From the NCBI GenBank assembly GCA_003173895.1, contig PJMG01000006.1, positions 2,820 to 66,819 on the forward strand: a DNA stretch of 64,000 nucleotides. The letters are read 5' to 3'. The first letter of the stretch is position 1; each line of letters begins with the position of its first letter. A program made the translations under genes and the position numbers. The notes beneath the pieces were generated by a model. The model saw nothing but the letters and a program-made list of their open reading frames with translations. It was not told the DNA's origin and ran no database searches. This document shows, one piece after another, positions 9,095 to 52,032 of this stretch. Source of the stretch: Candidatus Levyibacteriota bacterium. Its GTDB lineage: Bacteria; Patescibacteriota; Microgenomatia; Levybacterales; UBA12049.

Positions 9095-9781
9095 ATGGTA
9101 GAAAATGCTGCCCAATCAGTTTATATTCAACCAGAAAAAAACACTACTAGTAAAATTAAAATTATTTTACTCATATCCTTCATACTTTTAATGTGCCTAT
9201 CAATTATTGCTATTTTGTTCTTTATCCACCCTAAGCAGAATACACTCAATACAATAACTAACCAATCACCAAATTCATCAAAAGATCCTACCCAGCAAAT
9301 AAACCTATCTATGCATCAATACCTCACTCAGTGGGTAAATGCACCATATATACCATCTGATACACAATCAAATCTAGTCAAAAATAATAACACCTACTCA
9401 CTTATGTGGCGACGAATAAGTGATATTATCTTAGGAAGACTTATTTTTACTCTTTATTCAAATAATACATTTGACGCTCAACTAAGTATACATTCTAGTA
9501 AGAAAATTGATGTGCTCAATGCTCAACTTGCAAATAGTATAAGTAATATTTACTTTAATCTCAAATCTCCTGTATCATGGAATTGTGGAGAAAATACAAC
9601 AATGGAATTATGTACAAGTTTACTAAAAGAGAATAATGTTCCTTATGAACTTACAGTATATAAATTGCAAGCATTGCAAAATGATGAATTAATTGTGTTA
9701 TGTTCTCTTTCCGAACAAAATCCATTATATGGAACAAAATATTTTTGTTTAGAGAATGATGAAAAACAAATACTTAAATAA
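9095..9781 (+). CDS. membrane-anchored hypothetical protein (228 aa)
   Basis: Single N-terminal TM helix (IKIILLISFILLMCLSIIAILFFI); overlaps start of next gene. Confidence 0.5.
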   Translation: MVENAAQSVYIQPEKNTTSKIKIILLISFILLMCLSIIAILFFIHPKQNTLNTITNQSPNSSKDPTQQINLSMHQYLTQWVNAPYIPSDTQSNLVKNNNTYSLMWRRISDIILGRLIFTLYSNNTFDAQLSIHSSKKIDVLNAQLANSISNIYFNLKSPVSWNCGENTTMELCTSLLKENNVPYELTVYKLQALQNDELIVLCSLSEQNPLYGTKYFCLENDEKQILK

Positions 9782-12290
9782 TAAATTGGTTTTTATATTA
9801 GGTGTATGCTTTCTGCTTATATGCATGTTTGTGGCTATACCAAAAAAAGCGCAGGCACAACCTGCATGTAATTATGGGTTAGGTGGAAGCTGTGAGGTCA
9901 CATGTCCGAATGGTACAGGTTCGGCAGGGATTCAAGATTGTCCTCAGATTGGCGGAGGAATCAGCGAACAATGTTGTGTTGCTTTTCAATATGATTGTGA
10001 TAGTGGTACAGGACCAGGGTATTGTAATAGTCCTAATCAACAGTGTATCCTTACAAATGGATATTTCTATTCTTGTCAAACAACTTGTAACGGTACTTGC
10101 TTTTCTGGAAATGGATGTCCAGGAGGATATTCTCAATCAGGTTCTTGTGCTCTACGCACAAGTCAAAATTCACCTTTAATACAACGCACTTGTTGTGTAG
10201 CTAATGGTGGTGGACCAACTCCCCCTCCTACTTGTAATGGGCAAACGGTTTGTGGAGGGTGGGTAAATCCAGGAGCTAATACTACTTGTGCTGGAAATAA
10301 TTCTCATAGAAATTGTACTACCACTTTTACTAACTGTACTCAAAGTAGCTTTACTCAATATCGTACAGTTAATAGCTGTACAGCAGGACATACTTGTTAT
10401 ACCGATGGTACTTGTCATTTAACTAATTGCACTACTGGTGAAGTAAATTGTGGTGCTTGTGGAGGAGGTACTCAACCTGCCAATACATGTAATAATACTA
10501 ATTCTAATCCTGGAGGTAGAACCTGTCATCATAACGGTCCTGCAGGCTGTCTGAATCAAGTAACTTTTCGAGCTACTGACTGTTCATATTCATATAATAC
10601 CTGTAATAACACATATACATGTCCTGCTGGAAGTACAGGTCATACAAACTGTACTACTACTTTAACAGTACGTTTATTTATAGATTATAACCATAACGGA
10701 GTTAAAGATGGTGAAGATCCTTACTACACTGCTGCAAATGTATCAGTTAGATTGGCGTGGAATGGAGGTAGTAATACCTCAGCCTTTGATAATACAGGAA
10801 CTCATACTTTTACAGTCCAGTCCAATAATTACACACTTTCACTAGTAGGAGTCCCAGGAAATTATAGAATTATCAGTAGGAATCCATATCCTATTGGCAT
10901 GGGCCCTGCTGCGACTGTAAATCTGGCTATTACTCCACTATATTCTATTTCAGGAACTGTTTATGATGATACTAATAAAAATAAAATATTTGATCCTAAT
11001 TGTGGAAATCCTAACCCTTCTCTTTGTGATCATGGAGTAAATCAAGGAGGAGTTACTATGGTTTTTAAAGATGATGGATCTAAAACTACGGCTGCTATAA
11101 ATGGAGATGGTACATTTAATTCTGGTACTACACTCGAATCAGGAACTTATACTGTGAATTATACTTTGCCTAATGGTAATGAATGGGAAATGTCTTATCC
11201 TATACCTGCTACATTAATCATAGATGTAGGTAAACCAGGAACTTCTCGCCCCTGTAATGATGGAACCTATAATGATGTAGCTTGTGATGGAACTGGTAAC
11301 ATAACAGGTGCTGACTTTGGTATTACGAATGAATATCCTTCTCATGTAGGAATCTGTACTGATCAGAGAGATGATAATGGTTTTACCGATCCCTTACCTC
11401 AACCTCCTGGTTCTACGGCTGCCTGTGGAAACTATTCTCTAAATGGTACCTCTTATCCACTGGTAATGAGTTATGCAGATATTTGTCCCACTAATGCTGG
11501 TACAGGTATAATTTTTTCAGGCAATCAGGATCCATTTTTTGGTCAAGGAGCAGCCTCTAAAACAAATTGGAGTGTGGGAAATACTACTTATCCTGAAAAT
11601 TATACACCCGCTCAACCTGGAGTGATAACTACATCTTATGATTATTTAGTGGGATTAGCACAATCTTCAGGAATAGATTTTACTAACCCTAGTAATGAGC
11701 TTATAACTTATTGTGATTTAAATAACTGTACTTTACCCTCGAACTTACCAAATGGTGTTTATTTCGCTGATGGAGATGTTAATTTAAATGCATATACTTT
11801 TCCAAGTAATAAAGAATATGTAATTTTAGTGAATGGAAATTTAACTATAAATGGAAATATCTTACTTCCTACAGGATCAGATGCTATTTTTGCAGTTAGC
11901 GGAAATATTATTATTCCACCGACTGTGGGAGAAACTGATCCTACATCATCTGACGCTGATATCGAAGGACTCTACTCTGCTGGGGGATCAGTTCTGATAG
12001 AATCTGCTGCTACTCCCATTCAACCATGTAACAATGACGCTAGTGCTATCGATAAAAGATTAAATATTTATGGTAGTATGAATGCTAATACTAAACAAGT
12101 AGGCGGATCTGTCCAGAATCAGAGAGATCTTTGTGTCTCTGATGTCATTTGTCCTACTTATATGGTTAGTATCGGTGATGGAAATCCTGATGGAAATAGA
12201 GTCGGCGCAGGCACTGGTGTTTCATATATTCTTAATGCTCCCCAATTCATCATGCATAAGAATTATTTCTACCAGGAAGTAAACCCATAA
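9756..12290 (+). CDS. large secreted Cys-rich surface protein (844 aa) with low-complexity Cys/Thr/Asn/Gly region and two SdrD-B-like (DxNxNG..D) repeats
   Basis: Signal peptide; ~270-aa region with >40 Cys; VRLFIDYNHNGVKDGEDPYY and GTVYDDTNKNKIFDPNCG calcium-binding-like motifs. Confidence 0.7.
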   Translation: MMKNKYLNNKLVFILGVCFLLICMFVAIPKKAQAQPACNYGLGGSCEVTCPNGTGSAGIQDCPQIGGGISEQCCVAFQYDCDSGTGPGYCNSPNQQCILTNGYFYSCQTTCNGTCFSGNGCPGGYSQSGSCALRTSQNSPLIQRTCCVANGGGPTPPPTCNGQTVCGGWVNPGANTTCAGNNSHRNCTTTFTNCTQSSFTQYRTVNSCTAGHTCYTDGTCHLTNCTTGEVNCGACGGGTQPANTCNNTNSNPGGRTCHHNGPAGCLNQVTFRATDCSYSYNTCNNTYTCPAGSTGHTNCTTTLTVRLFIDYNHNGVKDGEDPYYTAANVSVRLAWNGGSNTSAFDNTGTHTFTVQSNNYTLSLVGVPGNYRIISRNPYPIGMGPAATVNLAITPLYSISGTVYDDTNKNKIFDPNCGNPNPSLCDHGVNQGGVTMVFKDDGSKTTAAINGDGTFNSGTTLESGTYTVNYTLPNGNEWEMSYPIPATLIIDVGKPGTSRPCNDGTYNDVACDGTGNITGADFGITNEYPSHVGICTDQRDDNGFTDPLPQPPGSTAACGNYSLNGTSYPLVMSYADICPTNAGTGIIFSGNQDPFFGQGAASKTNWSVGNTTYPENYTPAQPGVITTSYDYLVGLAQSSGIDFTNPSNELITYCDLNNCTLPSNLPNGVYFADGDVNLNAYTFPSNKEYVILVNGNLTINGNILLPTGSDAIFAVSGNIIIPPTVGETDPTSSDADIEGLYSAGGSVLIESAATPIQPCNNDASAIDKRLNIYGSMNANTKQVGGSVQNQRDLCVSDVICPTYMVSIGDGNPDGNRVGAGTGVSYILNAPQFIMHKNYFYQEVNP

Positions 12291-12304
12291 AAAAATTAAT
12301 CTCT

Positions 12305-12412
12305 GTCATCCTGAGTGACCCGCTTCGCCGAAGCGATAGCGAGGCGAGAACGAAAAATCTTTATCTTGGAAAGACTTAAGTATATAGATCCTTCGCTGAG
12401 GCTCAGGATGAC
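12305..12412. repeat. full-length family A GC-rich element (108 bp) with 11-bp terminal inverted repeats GTCATCCTGAG / CTCAGGATGAC
   Basis: Sits between convergent genes; internal palindromes cgcttcgccgaagcg and gatccttcgctgagg. Confidence 0.7.
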
Positions 12413-12419
12413 ATATTAT

Positions 12420-12971
12420 TTATTTTTTCATTAAAGTGAAGTTGAGGTTAGAGGGGATTTCGTTTTTATTAGAATCTAACATTTTTAATTCTGTATTATT
12501 TACTTTTAAATAATATTCCGTCTGATTAGAGTTATTCGGATTTAGTTGATAAATCAAAGCATTAGGATTATTTTTCATTCCATTTGTATAAGTCCAATTC
12601 CCCACTTCATCAAAAGGTTTTACATTTCTACCTAAATAAACTAATTCCAAGCTATAAGTCGTGGGTTTTAAGGTATTAGGATTTTGATAAAGAGTTAACG
12701 TAGTTTGAATTCCTTCACAGTCAGCGCAAGGGAATTTACCAGTATAAATTCCTACTATATTCGAATTAGCATTTTTAGTAGGAGCAAAAATAGTTTTATG
12801 TGCTAAGAGGAAGATTAAAAATCCAAAAATAATAACTAGAACCACGATTAAAATCTTAAAATTCTTATTTAATTCTCTTTTTAGAAAATTATTATTATTT
12901 TGTTTAGAAATCACTTTCTTTTTAGCAGAAGAATTTTTAATATTTTTATTTTTTTTAATTTCCTTTTTCAT
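12420..12971 (-). CDS. membrane-anchored NlpE N-terminal-domain-like protein
   Basis: Lys/Asn-rich N-terminus plus TM helix; YTGKFPCADCEGIQTTLTLYQN matches the NlpE_N PCADCxGI motif. Confidence 0.5.
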   Translation of the reverse strand: MKKEIKKNKNIKNSSAKKKVISKQNNNNFLKRELNKNFKILIVVLVIIFGFLIFLLAHKTIFAPTKNANSNIVGIYTGKFPCADCEGIQTTLTLYQNPNTLKPTTYSLELVYLGRNVKPFDEVGNWTYTNGMKNNPNALIYQLNPNNSNQTEYYLKVNNTELKMLDSNKNEIPSNLNFTLMKK

Positions 12972-13163
12972 TTGAACTTTTGCCTGTCCGCCTTAGCTTT
13001 AGCGATGGCGGAATTTTTTCATTTTAATCTCTATATTTATCAAAGTATATTTTTACATAATTTGCAATAGATAATTAGGAAATGAGATTCTTCGTTTCAC
13101 TTAGAATGACAAAAGATAAAGCAAGTAGGAATGTACTTTTAAGTAGCAAAATACATGCTACGA

Positions 13164-13202
13164 GCTGAGTATAAAGATCCTTTCGCTGAAGCTCAGGATG
13201 AC
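13164..13202. repeat. partial family A element (right-end half: gatcctttcgctgaagctcaggatgac)
   Basis: Matches right end of the 12305-12412 element; related fragment tccgcc..ggcgga + T6 at 12987-13019; solo agaatgacaa at 13103-13112. Confidence 0.55.
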
Positions 13203-13227
13203 GAAAATAGTTTATAATGACAAGAAT

Positions 13228-14724
13228 TTATTGGCAGGCGAATTGGACGGGTGGAGATAAGGGAGAAAAATTAGCAGAATTAGCTGAGGTAGAATAAGAA
13301 TATTGCGCATAATAAGTAGCACCAGTGGTAACGATATAGCCAGTAGTTAGAGATTGAGACTGAGTAGGATTAGCAGGATTAAGTGTAGTATTTAAAACCT
13401 GATTTCCTTGACTCGCGTATGTCATCACTAAATTATAGCTTTGAGCGTTTTGTAAATTAGACTGCGTATTATAATTTATAGTCACTTGCCAATTACCATT
13501 TTGCTGACCATTACAGGAAACATTAATAGTCGATCCACTAGGCGCTGATAACTGCTGCTGCGCATTAATAGTAAGTAAATTATTAGCAGATGGCGCTGTG
13601 AGAGTAAGAATATTTGATTGAGAGTAAGGCTGACCATTAGACCATAAATAAGCTTGAACATCATAAGACTGACCTGAATTAGCATTATTCCAAACCCAAC
13701 TTACCCCATCAGTGGCTGAAATATTTCCATTTATTTGATTAAAAGTACCTGTCCCTGTAGGACGAGTCGCTAACGTTATATAAGAATTAGGAGGAATGCT
13801 ACCATTTATATTTATAGTTCCTGAAATACCTGTAATAGCTGGTGCAGGTGGATTAGCTGTGGAACTAATAGCCAAATTAATATTGGATGAAGGCGCTGTT
13901 AAAGTTTGTAAACTACTACTGCTAATCAAAGATCCAGTACTACTTATTAAATTAGCTTGTATTTGATAAGTTTGACCTGAAATAGCACTACTCCACGACC
14001 AATTCACGCCATCTGTAGCAGACAGATTAGTCACTGCATTAATTAAGTTATTCGAATTATTTTGCTCAACCACTATATTAATATAGCTACCTGCAGGGAT
14101 ATAACCATCTAAATGAACATTTCCATTGATGGATGTGTTAGTAGTTTGAGGTGATTTTTGTTCTGAAACCAATGGTAAAACTATAGTATCAGCTGGTGCA
14201 GAGACAGAATTTATAGATGACTGTTCTATTACTTTTCCGCTTACCTTAATAGTGGCTTTAATATCATAGTTAGTACCACTATCAGCATCACTCCAATCCC
14301 AAGGAATATTACCACTTTGCGGCACTAATCCACTCACCACATCACTAAATTCAGCTTTACCACTAGGTCTAGCAGCTATAGCTAAGTACGAACCTGCTGG
14401 TGCATAACCTTCGAAATTTATTACACCAGAAATACTAGCAGGTGGCGCAGGTGTAGGTGTGATTATTTGTGTTTGATTTTTAGTAAAATATGTAAGACCA
14501 TTTTTACTATTAAAAAATATTAACCATACAATTGCGACTATTAAAATTATACTCACTACTCCTAAGAGTATAAGTAGTGGATTTAAAAACTTATTTTCCT
14601 TCTCTTCTTCTGTTTCAGTTGATGTGGAAGGTGGAGTTACTGGTGGAGGTGGTGTTTGTACAGGCTCCGTTGATATAATTGGAGCCGAATTATTTAAATT
14701 ATTATTTCCATCAGAGGGTTGCAT
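13228..14724 (-). CDS. membrane-anchored surface protein (498 aa) with three divergent ~95-aa tandem Ig-like repeats
   Basis: N-terminal Pro/Thr-rich segment then TM helix. The repeated pattern G(Y/S)(A/I)P(A/P)(G/N)SY..(I/L)..R(P)...F......(S/A)(T/D)DG(V/I).W.W..A.SG(Q/T).Y(D/Q)(I/V)(K/Q)A occurs three times. Confidence 0.7.
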   Translation of the reverse strand: MQPSDGNNNLNNSAPIISTEPVQTPPPPVTPPSTSTETEEEKENKFLNPLLILLGVVSIILIVAIVWLIFFNSKNGLTYFTKNQTQIITPTPAPPASISGVINFEGYAPAGSYLAIAARPSGKAEFSDVVSGLVPQSGNIPWDWSDADSGTNYDIKATIKVSGKVIEQSSINSVSAPADTIVLPLVSEQKSPQTTNTSINGNVHLDGYIPAGSYINIVVEQNNSNNLINAVTNLSATDGVNWSWSSAISGQTYQIQANLISSTGSLISSSSLQTLTAPSSNINLAISSTANPPAPAITGISGTININGSIPPNSYITLATRPTGTGTFNQINGNISATDGVSWVWNNANSGQSYDVQAYLWSNGQPYSQSNILTLTAPSANNLLTINAQQQLSAPSGSTINVSCNGQQNGNWQVTINYNTQSNLQNAQSYNLVMTYASQGNQVLNTTLNPANPTQSQSLTTGYIVTTGATYYAQYSYSTSANSANFSPLSPPVQFACQ

Positions 14725-14776
14725 TATTTAATAATGGCTGATTAACAACTGAAGTGTCAAGAGTTAAGAAAATTAC

Positions 14777-14974
14777 TTAAAGTACGTTTATTCTTTTATT
14801 AATTTTATGAGAATGAGATACTGTAGGTTTTATTAATTCTCTTCTTTTACATTCTTCATCATGTTCTAAAAGTAAATCACTCTTTTTAAGAAGTGAACTT
14901 GCGAAGCGTTCAGGTTTACCTGAAAAAACTCTTAGTTGTTTTCCACATTTTTGACAAATAAGTAAAGCTTGCAT
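14777..14974 (-). CDS. small hypothetical protein (65 aa)
   Basis: Short ORF directly upstream (same strand) of the surface-protein gene; no domain. Confidence 0.3.
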   Translation of the reverse strand: MQALLICQKCGKQLRVFSGKPERFASSLLKKSDLLLEHDEECKRRELIKPTVSHSHKINKRINVL

Positions 14975-15140
14975 AAAAGTATAAATAAAATATATCTTAA
15001 TAAGTATTCTATGTCAATAGATTGTCGCCAAAAAAATGACATCATTCAATGTGTGTGTGTTTTTATCTAGACAATAATTCTTTTAACAGTGAGTTATAAC
15101 ATGTACAAACATTTTTAATATAGTTATAATACCCTTATTC

Positions 15141-15926
15141 ATGAGTAAAATTATTGATTATCTAGCCAAACTCGAACTCTCAGATATGGAAGCCCGCTCT
15201 TATTTGAAACTCCTGGAAACTGGTCCTATAACTGTCAGTGAGTTTGCTCGCTTAATGAATATTAGACGAACTACAGCTTATCTTTATACAGATCCATTAG
15301 TAAGTAAGGGTTTAGTCATAAAAATAGTTAAAGGTAGTAAAAAACTTATCGCTCCTACACCTCCTGAAAACATAGAAGGGTTAATTGAACAGAAATTAAA
15401 TACAGCTCAATCTCTAAAAGAGACATTTCCCAAAATATTAGAAGAAATTAAGAATGAATATCAAATATTCCAAGATAATACTAATGTAGAAATTAAATTT
15501 TATAAGGGGATATATCATGCTAGAAATATTTATTTAGAAGCATTAAAAGCAGATGAATTTCGATCATACATGAAAATTGATAAAAGAGAACCTTTATTCC
15601 CTAGTAATGCTAGTGTGTTTAGTGAGGCTTTTAAAGAGAATAATAAACTTAAAATATGGGAGATTATTTATGATCCTGAATCTTCAGCAGTACCGTCTAA
15701 AGAATCTAGATCTCATATAGGTAGATATTTTTATAAATATATGCCAAAAGGTAAAAAATTAAGTTCTGAAGATATTCTTATTTATGATGGAAAAGTCGCT
15801 GTTATTAATTTTAGAGGAGGTAAAACTAGTATAGTTCTACAAAGTAAGGATTTATATAATAATTTTAAAGAAATATTTGAACTTTTATGGGATGTGCTTC
15901 CAGAACCTCCTAATCCAGATCTATAA
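15141..15926 (+). CDS. TrmB-family transcriptional regulator
   Basis: N-terminal wHTH LELSDMEARSYLKLLETGPITVSEFARLMNIRRTTAYLYTDPLVSKGLV matches TrmB N-domain. Confidence 0.7.
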   Translation: MSKIIDYLAKLELSDMEARSYLKLLETGPITVSEFARLMNIRRTTAYLYTDPLVSKGLVIKIVKGSKKLIAPTPPENIEGLIEQKLNTAQSLKETFPKILEEIKNEYQIFQDNTNVEIKFYKGIYHARNIYLEALKADEFRSYMKIDKREPLFPSNASVFSEAFKENNKLKIWEIIYDPESSAVPSKESRSHIGRYFYKYMPKGKKLSSEDILIYDGKVAVINFRGGKTSIVLQSKDLYNNFKEIFELLWDVLPEPPNPDL

Positions 15927-15940
15927 TATAATTTATTCAT

Positions 15941-16714
15941 CTACAAGAGAGGTTTTTGAGAATAGACTAAAGAATAAGTAGTAAAACCGTTACTCTTTCT
16001 TTTGGGATATATTTTAAGAAAGGATTTTACTAATGCGCTTTTTAATTCTTCTTTTTGTTCTTTATTTATATGTGCACTTCTACTAACGTTTAAGACATAA
16101 TTAGCAATAATATCTAAAGGCGCACTTGTCTTTATGGAAATTTCTTTTTTTTGTGGAGATTTTAAATTTGTTTTAGCACTTTTTAAATCTTCTAAGAATT
16201 GTGGGCAAGTCCATAATCCCCACTCTCCTCTATCTATACCATATTTATCAAAAGTTTCTTTAATGACATCTTTTAGAGGGATATCCCATTCATACATTCT
16301 CCAACCAATACATAATACCCCACCGGGTTTGAGAGCTTTAGCACAACGTTTAATAATTTCTTGGGGATTGGAGAATAAATGAAATGATTCAAATGCAATG
16401 ATAAGGTTATATTTATTAACTCCAAAATCAAAATCATCTACAGATTTATGATGCCAAATTACTTGTTTACTTTCATCTTTGGCTTTAGCCATTTCAATCA
16501 TTTTTTTCGATATATCAATTCCCTCAATAGAATGAGTAAATTTAGTTAAGGCTAGAGGTAAATCTCCGGAACCACACCCAAGATCAATAATGGTATCATT
16601 TGATTTAATATTAAAGGTTTTACCTATGAGATTTATATACTTTTCAGGCAATAAAGGAGTAAACGTGTAATATTCTTCAGCAATTGTATCAAACATTTGT
16701 ACTTTCTCTTGCAT
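15941..16714 (-). CDS. class I SAM-dependent methyltransferase
   Basis: Motif I IIDLGCGSGDL, motif post-I GIDISKKMIE, motif II/III LKPGGVLCI. Confidence 0.85.
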   Translation of the reverse strand: MQEKVQMFDTIAEEYYTFTPLLPEKYINLIGKTFNIKSNDTIIDLGCGSGDLPLALTKFTHSIEGIDISKKMIEMAKAKDESKQVIWHHKSVDDFDFGVNKYNLIIAFESFHLFSNPQEIIKRCAKALKPGGVLCIGWRMYEWDIPLKDVIKETFDKYGIDRGEWGLWTCPQFLEDLKSAKTNLKSPQKKEISIKTSAPLDIIANYVLNVSRSAHINKEQKEELKSALVKSFLKIYPKRKSNGFTTYSLVYSQKPLL

Positions 16715-16912
16715 ATATAAAATTATAACTATTTATTTAATAGGATAATATCTGTTACCTATATAAAAATTATTTAAGTTGTTTTTATAGAAACAATAAA
16801 TAGAAATAAATTTTACTATTTGTAAAATAAAAAGTCTACATTTAAGAATTTTATAATCCTCATTTGACAACTTTTAAGTTTTCTATCATAGTGATTTTAG
16901 GGGGTGATTTAA

Positions 16913-17125
16913 TTGATAAAATTATTTTTGAAACTGCGAAAAAAAGTAATTAGTTATTTAAAATTACATGCAGAATTTAATGCTTTCATTCATGCATTGG
17001 GTGGAATTGGAGTTGGAATTTTAATAGCCTCTCCCCTAGCTAATCCACATCCTGTTAGATGGGCATTGGTTTTCTTAGGAATTAGTTTAGCCGGACATTT
17101 ATACGCTTTAGGCGCTAAAAAGTAA
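16913..17125 (+). CDS. small membrane protein (70 aa)
   Basis: Shine-Dalgarno AGGGGGTGA 5 nt before TTG start; one TM helix; stop overlaps next start (TAATG). Confidence 0.4.
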   Translation: MIKLFLKLRKKVISYLKLHAEFNAFIHALGGIGVGILIASPLANPHPVRWALVFLGISLAGHLYALGAKK

Positions 17126-17934
17126 TGAAAAAAATAATTTTAATAATTATTAGTATTTTACTACTAGTAGGAATTTATTTTGTAATATTTAATCAATTTA
17201 TTTTTAAAAATCAAACTGGGAATAATGTTTTATCACCTACCCAACTAACTTCTTTACAGAACATAAACTGGAGTAAAGCGCAAGAAACGTCTCAACAAAC
17301 ATTTTATGGATTAATTTCAGGTAGACTTTATACTTTTAGTATATCTTCAAATGAAGCACAAATACAAACATTCGAAAATAAAGCAGAATTATCTAAATTA
17401 GGTTTTATTTTAGATTCTAATTTAGCAGCCAGCGGACCAGGTTCTAATATATGGGGTTATAAAAAAGTAACAAATGGGAAAACGCAAATTATTCTTTTTT
17501 CCTATCGAACTAGACCTAGTTCTAATAAACCCGATGAGCCATTACAGTTTAACTGTCCATGCGCTGTAGATTTAAATATTTTTATTAGTGATTCTTTTTC
17601 TATGACTACTTCTTTAACTCCAACTTCTTCAACATTACCAAATCCTGCATCTGAAAATTGTATTCAAAAAGGTGGAACTTTAAGAATTTTAAAGCGTGGT
17701 GATGGTGGCGAATATGGCTTATGTGATTTTGGAGATAATATGGCATGTGAAGAATGGGCTTTGCTTCGTGGACAATGTCCAGTAGGAGGTTTAAAAACTA
17801 CTGGCTATGATAATATTCAACAAATGTACTGTGCGTGGTTAGGTGGAAAAACACTAGCAGTACCTAATGCTAAATGTACTCTACCTTCTGGAAAAACCTG
17901 TAGTGTGGATGATGTTTATAATGGCAAATGTTAG
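17125..17934 (+). CDS. secreted protein with two C-terminal DUF333 (putative hemolysin)-like Cys motifs
   Basis: Signal anchor; NPASENCIQKGGTLRILKRGDGGEYGLCDFGDNMACEEWALLRGQCP resembles DUF333. Confidence 0.55.
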   Translation: MKKIILIIISILLLVGIYFVIFNQFIFKNQTGNNVLSPTQLTSLQNINWSKAQETSQQTFYGLISGRLYTFSISSNEAQIQTFENKAELSKLGFILDSNLAASGPGSNIWGYKKVTNGKTQIILFSYRTRPSSNKPDEPLQFNCPCAVDLNIFISDSFSMTTSLTPTSSTLPNPASENCIQKGGTLRILKRGDGGEYGLCDFGDNMACEEWALLRGQCPVGGLKTTGYDNIQQMYCAWLGGKTLAVPNAKCTLPSGKTCSVDDVYNGKC

Positions 17935-18194
17935 AGGTAAATTTCATCTATATAACACCAAGTAAATTCTTCTCCAGGTGAAACTGATTTCATAATAGGA
18001 TGATTAGTCGCTTTAAAATGTTTGGTAGCGTGTTTATTTTTAGATTGATCACAGCAACCCACATGACCACAGGTTAAACATTGTCTTAAATTTACCCAAG
18101 TATCACCAGTTTTTATACACTCTTCACAAAGAGTAGTATCATGGGGTGGAAAATCTTTAATTTGATCTTTATGAGTACAAACTTTATCCGCCAT
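17931..18194 (-). CDS. UBP-type zinc-finger domain protein
   Basis: CTHKD...CEEC...WVNLRQCLTCGHVGCCDQSKNKHATKHFKATNHP matches zf-UBP Cys/His pattern. Confidence 0.55.
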   Translation of the reverse strand: MADKVCTHKDQIKDFPPHDTTLCEECIKTGDTWVNLRQCLTCGHVGCCDQSKNKHATKHFKATNHPIMKSVSPGEEFTWCYIDEIYL

Positions 18195-18249
18195 AAATTT
18201 AATGTAATCCTAAATTATAGAAATTGCAATTATTAAAGTATAAGATATT

Positions 18250-19032
18250 TTATCTATCTCGTCTCGAAGATAATTGTAGAAAAAGATTATTTTGATCTTC
18301 AGTTTTTCTTAAATCTTGATTTCCAAAGTTCTTAAATGTTATTTGTTTACTAAAATCTCTTCCGTACATTATTATAAATTCCTCTAATGCTATGTGCATT
18401 GGTTTAATATAACCTTCTAACGTATATGCTTCTAATTCAAAAGTTCTACTTGAATCTATCCCGGCTCTATTTTCAACTCTTTGTCTACATATTTCCGGTG
18501 GAACCTGAAGATAAACTAACGTAGTATTTAAAAAAGAATTTTCTGTAATTCTTTTAAAATTAAAATCAAACTTATTCCATTGATTTTCCGTTATTCTACC
18601 ATTATTAAAGTGAGATCTAAGATATGTCCAACTACCAACTAGTCCAAAATCTATAAGAGGTGTTTTATTTTCTAGTTTAGCTTTTTCTATTTGTTCTCGT
18701 AATAAATTTACTCTTTTACTAAATAAACTTATTTCAAAATCAAAAATTATTTGTTGATTTTTGGCTAAATCATCAGCATCAGTATATTTTTTAGTATTTA
18801 TTAAATCCAATGATTTTAAATAGTTTATTCTTTGAATTTCTGGTAAAGTTAAAAAGAGTTCATCTGAAGCAATATTATAAAAATCTGATATTTTACTTAA
18901 TGGCTCATCAATTGTACTCTTACCACTTCCTATATTACCTATTAATAATATAGATGCGTTCGGAGAAAGTGGAGATAACTCTTCTAATCGATTAATCTTT
19001 ATTTCAGAGTATTTCTGCGCATCTATAGCCAT
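18250..19032 (-). CDS. deoxynucleoside kinase family protein
   Basis: P-loop LLIGNIGSGKSTI; dNK-like ERVENRAGIDSSRTFELEAY (Arg-rich lid/ERS motif region). Confidence 0.65.
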   Translation of the reverse strand: MAIDAQKYSEIKINRLEELSPLSPNASILLIGNIGSGKSTIDEPLSKISDFYNIASDELFLTLPEIQRINYLKSLDLINTKKYTDADDLAKNQQIIFDFEISLFSKRVNLLREQIEKAKLENKTPLIDFGLVGSWTYLRSHFNNGRITENQWNKFDFNFKRITENSFLNTTLVYLQVPPEICRQRVENRAGIDSSRTFELEAYTLEGYIKPMHIALEEFIIMYGRDFSKQITFKNFGNQDLRKTEDQNNLFLQLSSRRDR

Positions 19033-19072
19033 AAGCGCAAATGTATCATATTATTCTAGGATAAGCAAGGAT

Positions 19073-20590
19073 TTACCTCTTTCTATTATTAATAGTAAAA
19101 AATGATATAACACTGCTTAAAAATGCTAGAGCTGCATTAATTCCCATAGCCCACTTATAACTATTTATAAATGATCTATCAATAATTTCCTTAGCTATCA
19201 TTTTATTTTCCATATTCAAGTTTTTAGGTATATTAATACCTCCTAATTTATTAGCTTGAGATAAAATTATCTGCTTTGTATTTATATTCAAACTTGAATT
19301 TAAGATTTGGGTTTTTAAACTGTTTTCAAAAAGTGATAATGCGATCGCTCCTAATAGTGCTACTGCGAAAAGTCCAGCTATTCTAGCCACAGCATTATTT
19401 ACTCCTGAGGCTGCTCCACTGTATTTTTCATCCACTGCTAGTGCTGATTTAGTTAAAGGCGCGATAACAATCGACATTCCTAAACCAAATAGAATAAGTC
19501 CAGGTAAAATTTGAGTGAAATAATTTACATTTAAACCGACTAGAGTTAATAAAAACATACCAATCGAAACTATAAAAGGCCCTACGATCATAGGAAATCT
19601 TGGGCCTATTTTATCTGCTAAGGTACCACCATATCCTGATAAAAAAGTAATCAATAAAATGCTAGGGAGTGTGGCAAATCCTGCCTCAAGTGGGGTGTAA
19701 CCTTGAATTTGTTGAAGATTTAAAACTAAGAAAAATACTACTCCAGAAAGTGCAAAATATAAAAATAATGTGGCTAAGTTAGCGCCTGTCACAAGTGGTG
19801 ATTTAAAAATACTAAGTGGAACTAATGGTTCTTTTTCTCGAGTTTGCCAGAATATAAAAGTTATAAATAAGATTAAGCCCAATGTTAAACTTACTAATAT
19901 AAATGGATTACTCCATCCTAGATCTGATCCAGAAATAAGCCCATAAGTTAAACCTAAAAGTGAAAGAAAAATTAAAATAGAACCTATTAAATCAATTTTA
20001 GTTGATTCCAGATTTCGACTCTCAGGAATATATTTATAAGCGAGAATCAAGGCAATAATTCCTAATGGAATATTAATATAAAAAATAGATGGCCAATTAA
20101 AATATTGAACTAAGTAGCCTCCTAAAAATGGTCCTAATGCTGCTACTCCACCCGCAAATCCTGACCAGATTCCAATGGCTCTTCCTCTAAAATCTTTTTT
20201 AAATGAAGAATCAATAATACTTAAACTCCCTGGAACCATCATAGCTCCACCAATTCCTTGTAGTGCTCGAAAAAAAGCTAATTCTGTAATGGAAGTGGAA
20301 ATGCTACAAAGAAATGAAGAAAAAATAAAAAGACCAATTCCATACATAAAAATTCTTTTTCTACCAAAACGATCGCCTAAACTACCTGCGATTAAAATAA
20401 GCGAACATAACATTAAAGCATATCCATTAATTACCCACTGGATTTCCGAAAGGCTGGCATTAAGTTTATTTTGCAGTGTAGGAATAGCTATATTAACTAC
20501 AGTCCCATCTAAGAATGCCATTCCAGAAGCTAAAATAGTAGCGATCAATAATAGCTTACCTTCAATATTTTTAGTAGTATATTGTTTCAT
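19073..20590 (-). CDS. MFS transporter, 14-TM DHA2 (EmrB/QacA-like) type
   Basis: 14 predicted TM segments; MFS motif A GDRFGRKRIF. Confidence 0.85.
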   Translation of the reverse strand: MKQYTTKNIEGKLLLIATILASGMAFLDGTVVNIAIPTLQNKLNASLSEIQWVINGYALMLCSLILIAGSLGDRFGRKRIFMYGIGLFIFSSFLCSISTSITELAFFRALQGIGGAMMVPGSLSIIDSSFKKDFRGRAIGIWSGFAGGVAALGPFLGGYLVQYFNWPSIFYINIPLGIIALILAYKYIPESRNLESTKIDLIGSILIFLSLLGLTYGLISGSDLGWSNPFILVSLTLGLILFITFIFWQTREKEPLVPLSIFKSPLVTGANLATLFLYFALSGVVFFLVLNLQQIQGYTPLEAGFATLPSILLITFLSGYGGTLADKIGPRFPMIVGPFIVSIGMFLLTLVGLNVNYFTQILPGLILFGLGMSIVIAPLTKSALAVDEKYSGAASGVNNAVARIAGLFAVALLGAIALSLFENSLKTQILNSSLNINTKQIILSQANKLGGINIPKNLNMENKMIAKEIIDRSFINSYKWAMGINAALAFLSSVISFFTINNRKR

Positions 20591-20591
20591 T

Positions 20592-21866
20592 TTATTTACC
20601 CAAAGTTAAAAACATTCCAATCGCTGCTAAACCCATACCTATAAATGTTATTAATACAAACATATTTGATAACCAACCACTTTTATATTTCCCCATTATT
20701 TTAGAATTGTTACCAATTAGAAAGATTATAAAAATTAGAGGCACTGCCACTACTCCATTTATAACTGCTGTAAAAACTAAAGCTTGAAAGGGATTAATAC
20801 CTATAAAATTAATTAGAAGACCAATTAATGTAGCTATAGTTATAACTCCATAAAATCCATGCGCTCTTTTTAACTTTAGATTTAATCCTTCCCGCCATTT
20901 TACTGCTTCAGAGAATGCGTATGCTCCTGAACCTGCCAAAACTGGCACAGATAATAAACCTAACCCAACAATTCCCACTCCAAAAATCAGTTTAGCCACA
21001 AATCCTGAATTAGGAAAAGTTTTAACTAAGGGTTGAAGAGCTGCTGCCGCATCAGACGCTGTTTTAATATTAGTTACTCCATGACTATTTAAGACAGTTG
21101 CAGCCACTACTATAATAGCCCATGTCGCAATTTCTGAAACGACCATACCTAAAAAGGTATCTATTCTTAAATCTTTTATAAAATGCCAATTAATACGTGG
21201 TTTACCATCCTTTTTTAATAAATGATCTACTCTCTCCTCTTCAGTTTCCTCCGATGCTTGCCAAAAAAACATATAAGGAGAAATCGTAGTTCCCAAAACG
21301 CCAATAATTATAAAGAGAAATTGAAAATTAAACTCAATATGTGGAATAAAAGTAGCTTTTAAAATAGTCATCCATGGTTGTTTAACTATAAAAAGCGTTA
21401 AGGGATAGGCTAAAAGCGAAAGACATAAATACTTTAGAATTTTAGAGTAAACTTTGTAGGAAGTAAAAATCTCTAGAATCAACATGAGTGCAGTAAAAAG
21501 TAGAGTTAAAATTACAAAAGGAACAGGAATGATTAGATTAGTGGCAGCAGCCATAGCACCGATATCCGCACCTATATTAATAGTATTGGCTATAAGTACT
21601 AATAAAACGACTGCGTAAAGAACAGTCTTACTATAATGATCCCTTACTACTGCTGCTATCCCTCGTCCAGTTACTGCACCAATTCTGGCACTGACTTCCT
21701 GAACTGCTGTTTGGAGAGGAAGCATAAATATGGCTGTCCAAAGCTGGCCATAACCAAATTGCGCGCCTGTTTGAGAATATGTAGCAATACCTGATGGATC
21801 ATCATCAGCAGCACCAGTAATAATTCCTGGTCCTAAAATTTTTAATAAATCCTTTAGTTTTTTCAT
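20592..21866 (-). CDS. mntH: Nramp-family divalent metal cation transporter
   Basis: GPGIITGAADDDPSGIATYSQTGAQFGYGQLW matches the Nramp signature region; ~11 TM helices. Confidence 0.7.
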   Translation of the reverse strand: MKKLKDLLKILGPGIITGAADDDPSGIATYSQTGAQFGYGQLWTAIFMLPLQTAVQEVSARIGAVTGRGIAAVVRDHYSKTVLYAVVLLVLIANTINIGADIGAMAAATNLIIPVPFVILTLLFTALMLILEIFTSYKVYSKILKYLCLSLLAYPLTLFIVKQPWMTILKATFIPHIEFNFQFLFIIIGVLGTTISPYMFFWQASEETEEERVDHLLKKDGKPRINWHFIKDLRIDTFLGMVVSEIATWAIIVVAATVLNSHGVTNIKTASDAAAALQPLVKTFPNSGFVAKLIFGVGIVGLGLLSVPVLAGSGAYAFSEAVKWREGLNLKLKRAHGFYGVITIATLIGLLINFIGINPFQALVFTAVINGVVAVPLIFIIFLIGNNSKIMGKYKSGWLSNMFVLITFIGMGLAAIGMFLTLGK

Positions 21867-21963
21867 GGGATTAGTTTAATTGTGGAATACTTAAGAATAA
21901 ATTGCAAGAAAAGGAAAGAGAAAAAAATTGTTTATTAAATTTCTAAAAGACGAGATTCTTCTC

Positions 21964-22008
21964 TCTCGCCTCGATTCGATTCGGCGAAGCGGGTCGTTCA
22001 GAATGACA
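21964..22008. repeat. truncated family A element in reverse orientation (left end only)
   Basis: Reverse complement tgtcattctgaacgacccgcttcgccgaatcgaatcgaggcgaga matches the left 45 bp of the 12305 copy. Confidence 0.65.
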
Positions 22009-22014
22009 AAGAGT

Positions 22015-22605
22015 TTAGGAGGACATGGTGGTTTCTTCTCTAGCTGTTTTTAACATTTTTGCAAACCATATTAATTGTTCTAACATATTTTTAGCCGTAT
22101 CCTCTGCACTTTCAAAAGCACCAGGTTTTAAATTTCCATTCTCATCTACCATAGTCCAAGAAAAAGGAAAATGAACTCCATTTCGGATAGGTACCATTTG
22201 TAATTCTATGACTACTTGTCTTAATTGCTGTACGGCGCGAGTTCCTGCTGCAATTCCTCCATAACTTATAAAAGCTACTGGTTTATTATGCCATTGGGCA
22301 AAAACATAATCGATAGCATTTTTTAAAACCGCACTGTAACCATGATTATATTCAGGAGTTACCATAATATATGCATCACCCTCACCTATTTTTTCCGCCC
22401 ATTTGGCTGCTAAATCTAAAGTGTATTTTCCTTTAGAAGCATTTGGAGACATAGGTTCATTAAAAAAAGGAAGCGGCCAATTTCTTAAATCAATTAACTC
22501 CGCTTCTACTCCCTCCATTTTAGATAATTTCTCAAAAATCCACTTTGCAGGTTTTTCTGAAAATCTATTTGGTCGAGTCGATCCAATGATTACTTGAATT
22601 TTCAT
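22015..22605 (-). CDS. NAD(P)H-dependent FMN reductase (flavodoxin-like fold)
   Basis: MKIQVIIGSTRPNRFS...DLRNWPLPFF...YIMVTPEYNHGYSAVLKNAIDY is the FMN_red pattern. Confidence 0.85.
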   Translation of the reverse strand: MKIQVIIGSTRPNRFSEKPAKWIFEKLSKMEGVEAELIDLRNWPLPFFNEPMSPNASKGKYTLDLAAKWAEKIGEGDAYIMVTPEYNHGYSAVLKNAIDYVFAQWHNKPVAFISYGGIAAGTRAVQQLRQVVIELQMVPIRNGVHFPFSWTMVDENGNLKPGAFESAEDTAKNMLEQLIWFAKMLKTAREETTMSS

Positions 22606-22629
22606 AAGAATATATTTAAAATATCACTA

Positions 22630-22668
22630 ATACTTTATTTTGTAAAGTACTTACAAAAAATAAAGTAT
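22630..22668. promoter_or_regulatory. perfect 12-bp inverted repeat ATACTTTATTTT-N15-AAAATAAAGTAT in the FMN-reductase/HxlR divergent region; candidate HxlR operator
   Basis: Seen directly; HxlR-family regulators commonly bind palindromes in their divergent intergenic region. Confidence 0.4.
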
Positions 22669-22716
22669 CAACATATAACTATATTAAAAATTAGTAGTAA
22701 ATTATAAACATAAAAT

Positions 22717-23028
22717 ATGATTGATAAAAATGTAAGAGATCAATGTGGTGTAGCTAAAACTTTAAAAATTATGGGTGGTAAATGGACATTTTTAATACTA
22801 CATAATTTATTTGAAGGTAAAAAAAGATTTGGAGAATTAGAAAGATCTATGTTAGGAATCAGTCCCAAAACTCTATCAGAAAGATTAACATTATTAGAAA
22901 AAGAAAAAATAATATCTAAGAAAGTTTTTGCTGAAATTCCTCTTCACGTTGAATATTCATTAACAGAAAAAGGAAAATCATTAAAAAATATATTTAAACA
23001 AATGGCTAAATGGGGAGAAAAAAATTAA
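22717..23028 (+). CDS. HxlR-family transcriptional regulator
   Basis: CGVAKTLKIMGGKWTFLILHNLFEGKKRFGELERSMLGISPKTLSERLTLLEKEKIISKKVFAEIPLHVEYSLTEKGKSL matches the HxlR consensus almost position-by-position. Confidence 0.9.
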   Translation: MIDKNVRDQCGVAKTLKIMGGKWTFLILHNLFEGKKRFGELERSMLGISPKTLSERLTLLEKEKIISKKVFAEIPLHVEYSLTEKGKSLKNIFKQMAKWGEKN

Positions 23029-33557: not shown

Positions 33558-33589
33558 CGAAAGCAAACTGCTATAACTTAATAAATAAA

Positions 33590-33631
33590 GATCCTTCGTT
33601 CCACTCAGGCCATAGCTCTTGAGCCCCAGAC
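33590..33631. repeat. family A-like fragment (gatccttcgttccactcagg...) abutting the histidine kinase stop codon
   Basis: GATCCTTCG..CTCAGG block as in the right ends of the 12388 and 42043 copies. Confidence 0.45.
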
Positions 33632-35086
33632 TCATAGAGATGATGAAACTGGGAGAGAAAAATAGAATGTAGAACCCTTACCTTCTGAACTTTCCACCCA
33701 CAGCTTACCTTTATGCAGTTTAATTATTTGACTAGAAATATATAAACCCAAACCTAATCCTGGATAAGTCTCATGACCTCGTACTTGATAAAATCGATCA
33801 AATATTTTCTTGTGAGCAATCTTAGGTATACCTATTCCAAAATCTTTCACATAAATTTCGATAGTATTTTTTTTAGGACGAGAACCGATAATAATATCTT
33901 TATCTGCTTTAGAATATTTAATAGCATTCGTAACTAAATTCGTAAGTACTTGTCTTATTCTTTCTTTATCAGCATACACATATAGTTTAGTATGCCAGTC
34001 TAATTTAAGCTTATGGAATGTGGTAGGTTGTAAGTCTTCTACTATTTCTTTCGCTAATTCTTTAACTAAGAACTTTTCCTTTTCTACTTTTAAACCACCT
34101 TTATAAAGTCTAGTAACGTCTAATAATTCTTTAACTAGATCTGTTAATTTATTTAGTTGAAGGTCAATTTTTTTAATTACTTTCTCTGATTCGGAATCCT
34201 GAGATTTTTGAAATCTCTTTTTCAAAATTTGCGCGAAAACAGTAGCAGATGTTAGAGGTGTTTTTAATTCATGAGAAGCCATATTAATAAAATCATCTTT
34301 TTTCTCCTCTAATTCTCTTTGAATAGTAATATCATTTATAATTTCTGCAGCAGCAATTATTTTTCCTTTCTTGTTAAGAATAGGAGCAGCACTAACTTGT
34401 AAAAATGTTTTTTTTCCATCTTTTTTTTGAATAGTTATGTTTTCGTTTTTTAATTTTTTCCCTTTTAATGCTGTTAATATAGGAGCTTGAGAAGCATTTA
34501 ATGGTTTATTATTAATTTCCGCATTTAAAAGTAATTCTTCACCATATATAAATTCTGTAGGAATTTTCATATCAATTATATTTTCCAGTTGTTTATTTTG
34601 GTGAATAACTTTACCAGTAGCATCGGAAATAATTATTCCTACTGGTAGTTGTTCTACAATAGTTTCCAACTGCTTTCTGCCATCTGCTTCTTTTTCGATT
34701 AAACTATCTACTGTTTGTTTTAATCCTCCAATTATCGCAGAAAGGCCAAAATATATTAACCCCAAATAAATGGTTGTTTCAACCCCAGCTATAAATTTTC
34801 CATTAGTATAACTTCTAGTTTCAATAATATATAAATAATATAAAATGGTTAAAGTACTAGTCGTAAAACCTCCTATTACTCCATTTCTAAGTGAGAAATA
34901 AATAATTAAGATTACATTAACAAAAATGATATAAGTTCCAACTATGTTAGGATCTTTTAAGATTTTATAAGATAAAAATTCCGATAAAATAAAAACAATA
35001 ATATTAAAGATAAGTGGAAAAAGAAAAGAATAATTTTTTTTACCCAGTTGCTTAATTGGATTTAAATAATCCAATATTTTTATCAT
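33632..35086 (-). CDS. sensor histidine kinase (TM + PAS-like + HisKA + HATPase_c)
   Basis: H-box MASHELKTPLTS; G2 box GLGLGLYISSQIIKLHKGKLWVESSEGKGSTFYFSLP; N-terminal TM helices. Confidence 0.85.
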   Translation of the reverse strand: MIKILDYLNPIKQLGKKNYSFLFPLIFNIIVFILSEFLSYKILKDPNIVGTYIIFVNVILIIYFSLRNGVIGGFTTSTLTILYYLYIIETRSYTNGKFIAGVETTIYLGLIYFGLSAIIGGLKQTVDSLIEKEADGRKQLETIVEQLPVGIIISDATGKVIHQNKQLENIIDMKIPTEFIYGEELLLNAEINNKPLNASQAPILTALKGKKLKNENITIQKKDGKKTFLQVSAAPILNKKGKIIAAAEIINDITIQRELEEKKDDFINMASHELKTPLTSATVFAQILKKRFQKSQDSESEKVIKKIDLQLNKLTDLVKELLDVTRLYKGGLKVEKEKFLVKELAKEIVEDLQPTTFHKLKLDWHTKLYVYADKERIRQVLTNLVTNAIKYSKADKDIIIGSRPKKNTIEIYVKDFGIGIPKIAHKKIFDRFYQVRGHETYPGLGLGLYISSQIIKLHKGKLWVESSEGKGSTFYFSLPVSSSL

Positions 35087-40670: not shown

Positions 40671-40682
40671 CCCCTCTCAAAC

Positions 40683-40727
40683 GTCATCCTGAGTTTCAAC
40701 GAAGGATCTATATTTTCAGAATGACAA
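40683..40727. repeat. compact family A element between the ArsR stop and the SRPBCC start: GTCATCCTGAG-tttcaac-GAAGGATC followed by solo end CAGAATGACAA
   Basis: Seen directly; operon-internal spacer. Confidence 0.65.
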
Positions 40728-41957: not shown

Positions 41958-42042
41958 AGCAAAAGTATTATAATCTTAAATTAAGATATTATCATTATTA
42001 AAAAACTGCCAGCAAAGCCAGCAGTTTTAATATTAAGAACGA

Positions 42043-49010: not shown

Positions 49011-49011
49011 A

Positions 49012-49035: not shown

Positions 49036-49037
49036 TT

Positions 49038-51964: not shown

Positions 51965-52032
51965 AACCTGAGATCACTTTAGCATATATTCTAGAATTGT
52001 CAATCTTAATTGGAGCTTACAGCCAGGCAAAT

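Follow-up and report, generated by a model that had tools for sequence, protein, structure and literature searches.

The 64-kb window examined here (the whole stretch analysed, from contig PJMG01000006.1 of a Patescibacteria metagenome-assembled genome (MAG); GC 31.7%) carries 13 copies (U1 to U13; ~1 per 5 kb) of a short repeat. Each unit is an oriented hairpin of ~27–30 nt, made up of an unpaired TGTC or CGTC tag, a stem that starts with AT, a loop, the returning stem arm ending in AT, and then a C; the first two stem pairs are A-T and T-A and the C is directly 3′ of the stem. Two units resemble NTS (CGTCATTCCCGCGMAVGCGGGAATCYRG), a Neisseria repeat that extends the dRS3 repeat and was described together with a degenerate Ssn-related motif (SRM) (Chenal et al. 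2025, Nat Commun, PMC11893778). The other 11 belong to a CTGAG...CGAAG subtype, among them long-loop copies, solo tags and degenerate copies (two of each). The NTS-like form (U1, U2) has eight Watson-Crick pairs and a loop of 4–5 nt, and the CTGAG subtype (GTCATYCTGAG-loop-CGAAGRATC) has five Watson-Crick pairs, tandem G.A/A.G mismatches and then a G-C pair.

The tag is TGTC in nine and CGTC in two of the 11 tagged units, GTC and the C after the stem are kept in all nine full units (those with tag, stem and tail; U1–U8 and U10), and a stem pair that covaries in other genomes (see below) is retained in eight of nine. GC content of the units is 49%, compared with 31.7% for the window, bearing out an earlier note on this DNA, which had described GC-rich copies in an AT-rich genome. 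Allowing up to one mismatch, GTCATCCTGAG occurs six times (0.48 expected), a count reached in none of 100 shuffles, and U1 and U2 are the only matches in the window to the published SRM regular expression (2 vs 0.05 expected). Three pairs of units form tag-outward, head-to-head (HH) dimers, at 4643–4706 (U1/U2), 12303–12414 (U3/U4) and 40681–40727 (U8/U9); there are no tail-to-tail (TT) dimers.

A covariance model built solely from units of foreign genomes (model R1) was run on the window. It gave four strong matches (12386–12413, 13085–13111 and 13175–13203 on the − strand and 40682–40709 on the + strand; E 2e-7 to 2e-4) and six weaker ones (E 0.05–0.7), at 33593, 42042, 4678 and 21977 (−) and at 4644 and 49013 (+), all six coinciding with sites named in the earlier note. 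That note had listed eight copies besides its principal one, seven of which are indeed related (4643–4706, 13164–13202, 21964–22008, 33590–33631, 40683–40727, 42043–42117 and 49012–49035). The eighth, 12987–13012, which it took for a fragment, has no R1 match and aligns to the long units with a score (18) below the shuffled maximum (20). At 12987–13025 (+), between two minus-strand genes, lies a GC-rich hairpin (TCCGCC...GGCGGA, then ATTTTTTC) that is unrelated to the repeat family and could be an antisense or bidirectional terminator. Searches of Rfam with the CTGAG units identified no covering family at gathering or E≤1 thresholds. A hammerhead-like or k-turn RNA reading of CUGAG...CGAAG was considered and dropped, the core CUGANGA...GAAA being absent and Rfam giving no match.

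Units and their placement in the window

U1 (TTGTCATTCCCGCGAAGGCGGGAATCTAT; 4643–4671, +) is an NTS-type unit with an 8-bp stem and a 4-nt loop, and differs from the Neisseria NTS consensus solely at the first and last positions; its DNA fold has −8.9 kcal/mol (z −4.1) and it scores 15.7 bits with R1. Its HH partner, the NTS-like U2 (TTTGTCATCCCCGACCTGATCGGGGATCCC; 4677–4706, −; 8-bp stem, 5-nt loop; DNA fold −8.4 kcal/mol, z −3.8), is in the same open reading frame (orf), a Wzy_C/TPR (O-antigen-ligase) gene at 3202–5613, and the pair is translated in frame as VIPAKAGIYAEGSPIRSGMT. Alignment with eleven homologues places this peptide in a length-variable loop, and the two closest homologues (59–62% identity) lack ~17–20 residues exactly at the dimer, which is consistent with insertion of U1/U2. 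The earlier note had correctly located a copy inside a gene here, although it belongs to a different subtype from the others, as an NTS-like dimer.

U3 (12303–12361, +) starts 14 nt past the stop of orf 9756–12290 and consists of GTCATCCTGAG, a ~35-nt GC-rich insert and GAAAAATC. U7 (21952–22010, −), 7 nt past the stop of an FMN-reductase gene (22015–22605) and upstream of an Nramp gene, contains an insert of the U3 subtype and, even with this long insert, scores 12.1 bits with R1. In both, the ends of a short unit surround the insert, and the two copies are ~82% identical over 61 nt. U4 (ATGTCATCCTGAGCCTCAGCGAAGGATCTA; 12385–12414, −; R1 37.2 bits, E 2.2e-7), a short CTGAG-type unit and the HH partner of U3, lies 7 nt past the stop of orf 12420–12971 (− strand). 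The region containing both (12300–12416) folds with −22.7 kcal/mol (z −3.9). A single 108-bp element with 11-bp terminal inverted repeats (TIRs) had been proposed for this site, with copies elsewhere regarded as truncations of it. The supposed TIRs are the tag plus first stem half of each of two different units that face each other, and the repeating unit is a single ~30-nt hairpin, larger structures being dimers.

U5 (TTGTCATTCTAAGTGAAACGAAGAATCTC, TGAAA loop; 13084–13112, −; R1 36.4 bits, E 3.6e-7) is a short unit one base away from units found beside Ssn-like nuclease genes (see below) in Saccharibacteria (locus L009) and Planktothrix (L345). Of three solo ends reported previously, those at 40717 and 42107 are genuine solo tags, but that at 13103 is the tag of U5, which is complete and had been missed. 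U6 (TCGTCATCCTGAGCTTCAGCGAAAGGATCTT; 13174–13204, −; R1 25.9 bits, E 1.8e-4) is a short unit with a 1-nt bulge, 25 nt past the stop of orf 13228–14724. U8 (ACGTCATCCTGAGTTTCAACGAAGGATCTA; 40681–40710, +; R1 32.8 bits, E 3.1e-6), also short, is flanked by an AHSA1/SRPBCC gene (40116–40670) and an ArsR-family gene (40728–41087), and is faced by the solo tag U9 (TTGTCATTCTGAAAAT; 40712–40727, −), a truncated HH partner located 2 nt past the ArsR stop codon, whose R1 match (9.6 bits, E 3.1) is not significant alone. U4, U5, U6 and U8 all have the form GTCATYCTGAG-(5–7 nt)-CGAAGRATC, and the loops of the short units in the window are CCTCAG, TGAAA, CTTCAG and TTTCAA.

The remaining units are compound or incomplete. 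U10 (42041–42094, −; R1 16.0 bits, E 0.067) comprises a tag with truncated first arm, ATCCTGAGTGAAAC, a 9-nt insert and CGAAGGATCTC. The U10 tag has the solo tag U11 (TTGTCATTCTGTCTT; 42103–42117, −) 23 nt upstream, itself 3 nt past the stop of orf 42119–42463. Solo tags (GTCATTCTG..., with no rest of the hairpin) placed exactly 23 nt upstream of a unit's tag are seen both here (42092–42117) and in Planktothrix, where, beside the Ssn-like gene, they are arrayed in tandem at 23-nt intervals (L345, ~1560–1640). U12 (AGTCCTGAGCGCAGTCGAAGGAATCT; 49011–49036, +; R1 13.9 bits, E 0.23) is degenerate, missing the AT where tag and stem join, and fills the 27-nt gap between an FtsX-type permease gene and an ABC ATPase gene. 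U13 (33589–33631, −; R1 16.3 bits, E 0.056, model positions 7–23) is partial, with GTC, a 19-nt insert and the 3′ part CCTGAGTGGAACGAAGGATCT, and abuts the stop codon of a histidine-kinase gene (33632–35086).

All seven intergenic sites begin 0–26 nt past the stop codon of the upstream gene; the flanking genes are on the same strand at six and convergent at one, and no site has divergent neighbours, in agreement with the bias towards positions 3′ of stop codons and between same-strand genes noted earlier. The best named homologues of the Nramp and O-antigen-ligase proteins of the window are from Patescibacteria, Levybacteria and Microgenomates MAGs.

The CTGAG subtype and its GIY-YIG partner in other genomes

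One genome per species was scanned with the pattern GTCATYCTGAGN{5,9}CGAAGRATC, in which Y and R are free to vary independently, and at least 120 foreign loci were obtained. The earlier note had named two findings that would each refute it, confinement of the motif to the window and a lack of positional bias relative to genes; neither holds, the motif being found elsewhere and the units being clearly biased to sites just 3′ of genes. Among the matches listed, the CTGAG subtype is present in >20 phyla, with hosts including Nitrospirae, Paceibacterota, Saccharibacteria, Gracilibacteria, Komeilibacteria, Chloroflexota, Acidobacteriota, Bacteroidota, Firmicutes, Helicobacter, Planctomycetes, Verrucomicrobiota, Melainabacteria and others. 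At the Y..R stem position, the 158 units from these loci have C-G in 90 cases, T-A in 66, C-A in two and T-G in none. In 52 distinct sequences, the covarying pair is CG (28), UA (22) or other (2), the loop-closing pair is CG in 41 and UA in three, and 97.5% of cells are paired, compared with 20–52% when partners are slid. The base preceding GTC is T in 74% of the 158 foreign units; GTC and the trailing C were fixed by the search pattern, and foreign units give no independent support for those positions.

The commonest loops (CGCAG, CGAAG, CGTAG and CGGAG) generate a heptamer, GCGNAGC, at the hairpin tip, and this core was identified in 90 of the 158 foreign units among the matches listed. The consensus of the subtype is TGTCATCCTGAGCGCAGCGAAGGATCT, with a loop that can be expanded to tens of bases (3 to ~35 nt, and ~70 nt in Chloroflexi). 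The GCGNAGC DNA mini-hairpin melts at 76.5 °C, and the RNA form of a related octamer (GCGAAAGC; the sole RNA value in the review) at 39 °C (PMC13037366). The predicted energies of CTGAG units are modest because nearest-neighbour models miss the stability of the mini-hairpin. A search of the literature library with the literal CTGAG-subtype sequence returned no relevant paper, and the subtype is apparently undescribed and outside published definitions. CTGAG-type motifs are also found in at least 120 viral or proviral IMG/VR contigs (L224–L343). These viral contigs (1.13 Mb) encode no Ssn-like GIY-YIG protein, leaving phage carriage of a whole cassette unsupported.

SsnA, the 94-aa GIY-YIG protein associated with NTS, binds the tagged strand as single-stranded DNA (ssDNA) only, not RNA, and cuts a few bases upstream of NTS; cleavage depends critically on the three bases 5′ of the palindrome and binding on the C just 3′ of it, and ssnA is typically flanked by NTS repeats (PMC11893778). 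Among the at least 120 genome loci with CTGAG units, a single-domain GIY-YIG orf (PF01541) is found directly beside units in four, from Saccharibacteria (L009), Gracilibacteria (L040), Cyclobacteriaceae (L022) and one further GC-rich genome (L122). The Saccharibacteria protein has homologues with 67–75% identity in Deltaproteobacteria, Chloroflexota, Nitrospirae and other groups, and searches of NCBIfam and PDB with the partner protein gave weak generic GIY-YIG or UPF0213 matches. Residues Y5, Y7, Y17, G19, R27, H31 and E64 are invariant in an alignment of 25 members of this clade; the catalytic residues reported for SsnA are Y6, Y17 and E64 (PMC11893778). In a gonococcal control (an N. gonorrhoeae chromosome filed in a plasmid collection), a GIY-YIG gene lies amid seven NTS copies. 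It is taken to be the ssnA orthologue (Chenal 2025), and its product has 46% identity (E 9e-26) to the Saccharibacteria protein.

Linkage was then quantified in 80 metagenomic loci encoding the clade (93–95-aa GIY-YIG proteins), each with 1.5-kb flanks on either side. A strict short unit is present ≤300 nt from the gene in 42/80 and a loosely defined unit in 62/80, and 93 of 102 strict units lie ≤300 nt from the gene, in loci that extend 1500 nt either side. Units upstream are mostly in gene orientation and those immediately downstream mostly inverted, so that tags point outward in a manner reminiscent of an insertion sequence. None of the 80 loci has an NTS-type unit, and the published SRM pattern gave no matches in these Ssn-like loci vs eight in the gonococcal control. 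One widespread Ssn clade is apparently partnered most often by the CTGAG subtype. A Chloroflexi locus encoding an identical GIY-YIG protein was recovered from two samples (L126, 2111–2801; L125, 2288–2558), and L126 holds ~420 nt more of long-loop units downstream of the gene than L125, a copy-number polymorphism of the repeat. Many gene-bearing contigs extend no more than a few hundred bases beyond the Ssn gene, as expected of an assembly-breaking repeat, and the units probably do break assemblies.

Several further features of Ssn-like genes were observed. A unit-flanked cassette is carried by plasmid p1 of a cultured cyanobacterium, Planktothrix agardhii (NZ_LR882964.1, 17647–20313; L345), where the Ssn-like gene is situated between an MmeI-type restriction-modification gene and the DISARM gene drmA, in a defence island. 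On a Saccharibacteria-like contig (L135–L143) the Ssn-like gene is beside prepilin peptidase, pilin and PilC genes. Several Ssn-like proteins terminate in ...SSLRSE or ...PSLRSG, which is translated inverted unit (e.g. L040, 6272–6601); the coding sequence continues into the adjacent hairpin, where TGA in the complement of the tag (GAATGAC) serves as the stop codon.

Interpretation and alternatives

The elements in the window are best explained, with a probability of roughly 0.7, as members of the class formed by CGTC-tagged repetitive extragenic palindromes (REPs) and SRM (NTS), that is, as orphan ssDNA hairpin sites of an Ssn-related nuclease, in a relationship like that of REPs to their REP-associated tyrosine transposases (RAYTs). 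The mechanism proposed as most likely is that demonstrated for NTS/SsnA. The partner clade is homologous to the gonococcal NTS-flanked gene. The tagged strand would fold when single-stranded, e.g. during replication, repair or DNA uptake, and a small single-domain GIY-YIG nuclease of the Ssn family, presumably encoded in the host genome, would bind the fold and nick a few bases 5′ of the tag. Elsewhere, tag-outward units bracket the nuclease gene, and the window units would be orphan derivatives of such a unit-gene-unit cassette, as singlets, tag-outward dimers and solo tags. Copies that spread in this way would persist where the compact genome tolerates insertion, directly 3′ of stop codons and, in a single case, as in-frame sequence of a membrane-protein loop that varies in length. 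The earlier suggestion of non-autonomous mobile elements is in this respect plausible, now with a candidate partner gene.

Several observations weigh against orphan nuclease sites. Searches by regular expression and hidden Markov model (HMM) identified no GIY-YIG orf in the 64-kb window, and units are absent from ~40 kb of two related Patescibacteria (L001, L003), which were reached via Nramp homologues (77–80% identical) without synteny, making comparison of spacers uninformative. To our knowledge cleavage of the CTGAG subtype by an Ssn enzyme has not been demonstrated, and we know of no route by which a lone GIY-YIG nuclease could copy units to new sites. The GCGNAGC core is lost from the short units of the window, where copies mostly lack the exact heptamer, and these units fold weakly (−1 to −3.5 kcal/mol, z ~0 to −1, by nearest-neighbour models); they may be decaying relics. 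All seven single units in the window are sense-oriented and 0–26 nt after a stop codon, which a role at the RNA level would predict likewise. SsnA is sequence-specific (PMC11893778), and therefore activity on the CTGAG subtype cannot be assumed.

A more far-reaching version of the nuclease-site explanation is that the CTGAG hairpin and its ~94-aa GIY-YIG partner make up one selfish, horizontally moving element built on a DNA mini-hairpin and spread through >20 phyla, including the Candidate Phyla Radiation (CPR). The window copies would then be its non-autonomous progeny, in a system resembling REPINs and RAYTs but driven by an ssDNA nuclease rather than a transposase. Pointing in this direction, partner proteins are 67–75% identical between Saccharibacteria, Chloroflexota, Nitrospirae and Deltaproteobacteria, and the hairpin sequence is nearly invariant there; we regard this extension as possible, and put it forward tentatively.

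A function in RNA, with the transcribed 3′ hairpin blocking 3′-5′ exonucleases or terminating transcription and the link to GIY-YIG genes secondary, is the classic proposal for REPs and would be compatible with the units also being nuclease sites. Sense orientation and proximity to stop codons are what it leads one to expect, the clamp structure is also predicted for RNA (−3 to −9 kcal/mol), an NTS-type dimer is found within the Northern-verified small RNA (sRNA) FtrB (PMC3091763), and an RNA role was argued by Di Nocera 2013 from a like positional bias (PMC3733652). Against this, none of four terminator-like sites at 12000–23000 overlaps a unit, the number of such sites is not above shuffled expectation, and there is no consistent T-run 3′ of units. 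Elsewhere, 41 units are sense and 33 antisense relative to same-strand flanking genes. Primary sequence, and not fold alone, is conserved across >20 phyla among the matches listed, the covarying position has no G.U (G.T) pairs, and two units (U1, U2) are translated within a gene. As RNA, the consensus core is much less stable than as DNA (PMC13037366), and NTS in RNA form is not bound by SsnA (PMC11893778). An RNA function consequently seems unlikely to be the primary explanation, and the roles in termination, 3′ stabilisation or translational coupling raised previously are less favoured by this evidence than a role in ssDNA.

The model of the earlier note amounts to a miniature inverted-repeat transposable element (MITE), a unit of ~45–108 bp bounded by the 11-bp TIR GTCATCCTGAG and moved by a classical transposase, with shorter copies truncated. 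Tag-outward inverted pairs at three loci (4643–4706, 12303–12414, 40681–40727), the folding of the 108-nt region as one long hairpin (−22.7 kcal/mol, z −3.9) and an IS1595-family DDE transposase gene at 36264–37136 could all be read in this way. However, the unit is alone and complete at 13084–13112, 13174–13204 and 21952–22010, as in hundreds of foreign loci, and the halves of pairs are different units with different interiors, no interior being shared between full-length copies. Spacing and content between TIRs differ in all three cases, and no target-site duplications or direct repeats were found flanking the dimers. No unit-linked transposase was seen in 80 + 120 foreign loci, where the recurrent neighbour is the GIY-YIG gene. 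A MITE is therefore very improbable. The IS1595-family (ISXO2-like) gene (36264–37136, +; PF12762, E 1.5e-35) is not associated with units, and a Pfam scan of 60 window orfs revealed no other transposase domain.

Least credible are species-specific uptake signals like the DNA uptake sequences (DUS) of Neisseria, marking self DNA for transformation in a CPR bacterium. In favour, the short units have an orientation and are frequent (~1 per 5 kb), one Saccharibacteria-like Ssn gene adjoins type IV pilus genes and the related Neisseria NTS modulate transformation. Against it, an identical motif in >20 phyla cannot mark species identity, no uptake machinery adjoins units in the window, and NTS do not serve as uptake signals but come into play as nuclease sites once DNA has been taken up (PMC11893778).

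If the units are orphan nuclease sites, a conspicuous repeat of a CPR genome is linked to an Ssn nuclease/hairpin system characterised only in 2025 and mainly in Proteobacteria, and that system is extended to CPR and to a widespread subtype that the published search pattern misses. The units are also candidate substrates for uncharacterised Ssn enzymes, of interest as site-specific ssDNA-cutting tools. They are a hazard for annotation, since small spurious orfs and peptides inserted in frame (VIPAKAGI..., ...SSLRSE) result from them.

Other features of the window lie apart from the repeat. The Rfam DUF3800-IX RNA motif is matched over its full length at 5737–5806 (+; 61.1 bits, E 7e-11), directly next to the 3′ end of an oppositely oriented gene with a DUF3800 domain (5809–6426, −). 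About ten orfs of 128–565 aa at 51212–59404 and 60995–62418 have no Pfam match at E≤1e-5, and a 748-aa sigma-70 protein (907–3153) has an N-terminal extension of ~480 residues without domain matches.

Comparison with known systems

The resemblance to REPs, bacterial interspersed mosaic elements (BIMEs) and Rickettsia palindromic elements (RPEs) drawn in the earlier note was correct in kind; nothing was found to support its parallel with mitochondrial GC clusters. FtrB is a Northern-verified 115-nt sRNA of Francisella tularensis (Postic et al. 2010, PMC3091763), and the U1+U2 dimer gives a sub-threshold match at 4633–4722 to its Rfam model (RF02748), with 36.4 bits where gathering requires 66. 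An NTS-type dimer is present in the FtrB consensus as GUCAUUCCCGCGUAGGCGGGAAUCUC followed by another hairpin in inverted orientation, and the window dimer aligns to the whole model. Membership of FtrB was rejected, the score being far under gathering and the similarity limited to the embedded NTS-type dimer. FtrB is moreover a transcribed intergenic sRNA reported solely from Francisella (PMC3091763), whereas the window dimer sits within a coding sequence. The published FtrB Northern probe contains GTCATTCCCGCGTAGGCGGGAATCTC (PMC3091763), and what is called FtrB may not be a dedicated sRNA gene but the transcript of a CGTC-REP dimer.

The consensus of the CTGAG subtype shares with the mini-hairpin DNA d(GCGNAGC) of the Hirao group the GCGNAGC tip and adjacent tandem sheared-type G.A positions. 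Mini-hairpins have been described at ssDNA origins of phages and plasmids and at promoters, not as cores of dispersed repeats (PMC13037366).

GTAG REPs and REPINs with their RAYTs are likewise short tagged hairpins dispersed in intergenic DNA, with inverted doublets common, a single-copy gene bracketed by its hairpins, and presumed recognition of ssDNA. The present units differ in having GTC(AT) rather than GTAG as the tag and, as partner, a GIY-YIG nuclease rather than an HUH/Y1 transposase; we know of no strand-transfer chemistry for the GIY-YIG enzyme. No Y1/tyrosine-transposase (RAYT) domain was identified among the 60 window orfs scanned against Pfam.

A further comparison is with the CGTC-tagged REPs, including Neisseria dRS3 and Rickettsia RPE-4 and RPE-6 (Di Nocera, De Gregorio and Rocco 2013, PMC3733652). 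These have a CGTC, often TGTC, tag, a stem starting A-T/T-A and a tail from C, and occur mostly as HH dimers near the 3′ ends of same-strand or convergent genes, with in-frame intragenic dimers of ~20 residues (PMC3733652). The tag, AT-first stems, C tail, HH dimers, placement and in-frame dimer are all seen in the window. The four described families, mainly from Alphaproteobacteria, have uninterrupted stems of 8–9 bp and loops of 4–5 nt (PMC3733652), a rule that U1 and U2 fit; in contrast, the CTGAG subtype has 5 bp, a 2×2 G.A internal loop and 1–2 further pairs, and its tail is CT, not CCA. Di Nocera 2013 concluded that CGTC REPs are without a dedicated enzyme (PMC3733652).

With respect to NTS/SRM and SsnA, the differences are that 11/13 window units have the CTGAG...CGAAG form, in which tandem G.A mismatches occur and the loop varies or is very long, a subtype missed by the SRM pattern, and that the host is a Patescibacteria MAG with no ssn gene found in the window. 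RefSeq reference genomes, the basis of the Chenal study, contain few Patescibacteria. In common with that system, the units have a GTC tag, then an AT-first hairpin, then C; in other genomes they bracket a ~94-aa GIY-YIG gene, as in SRM-ssn-SRM; and the partner clade retains the catalytic Tyr, Tyr and Glu of SsnA (clade Y7, Y17 and E64).

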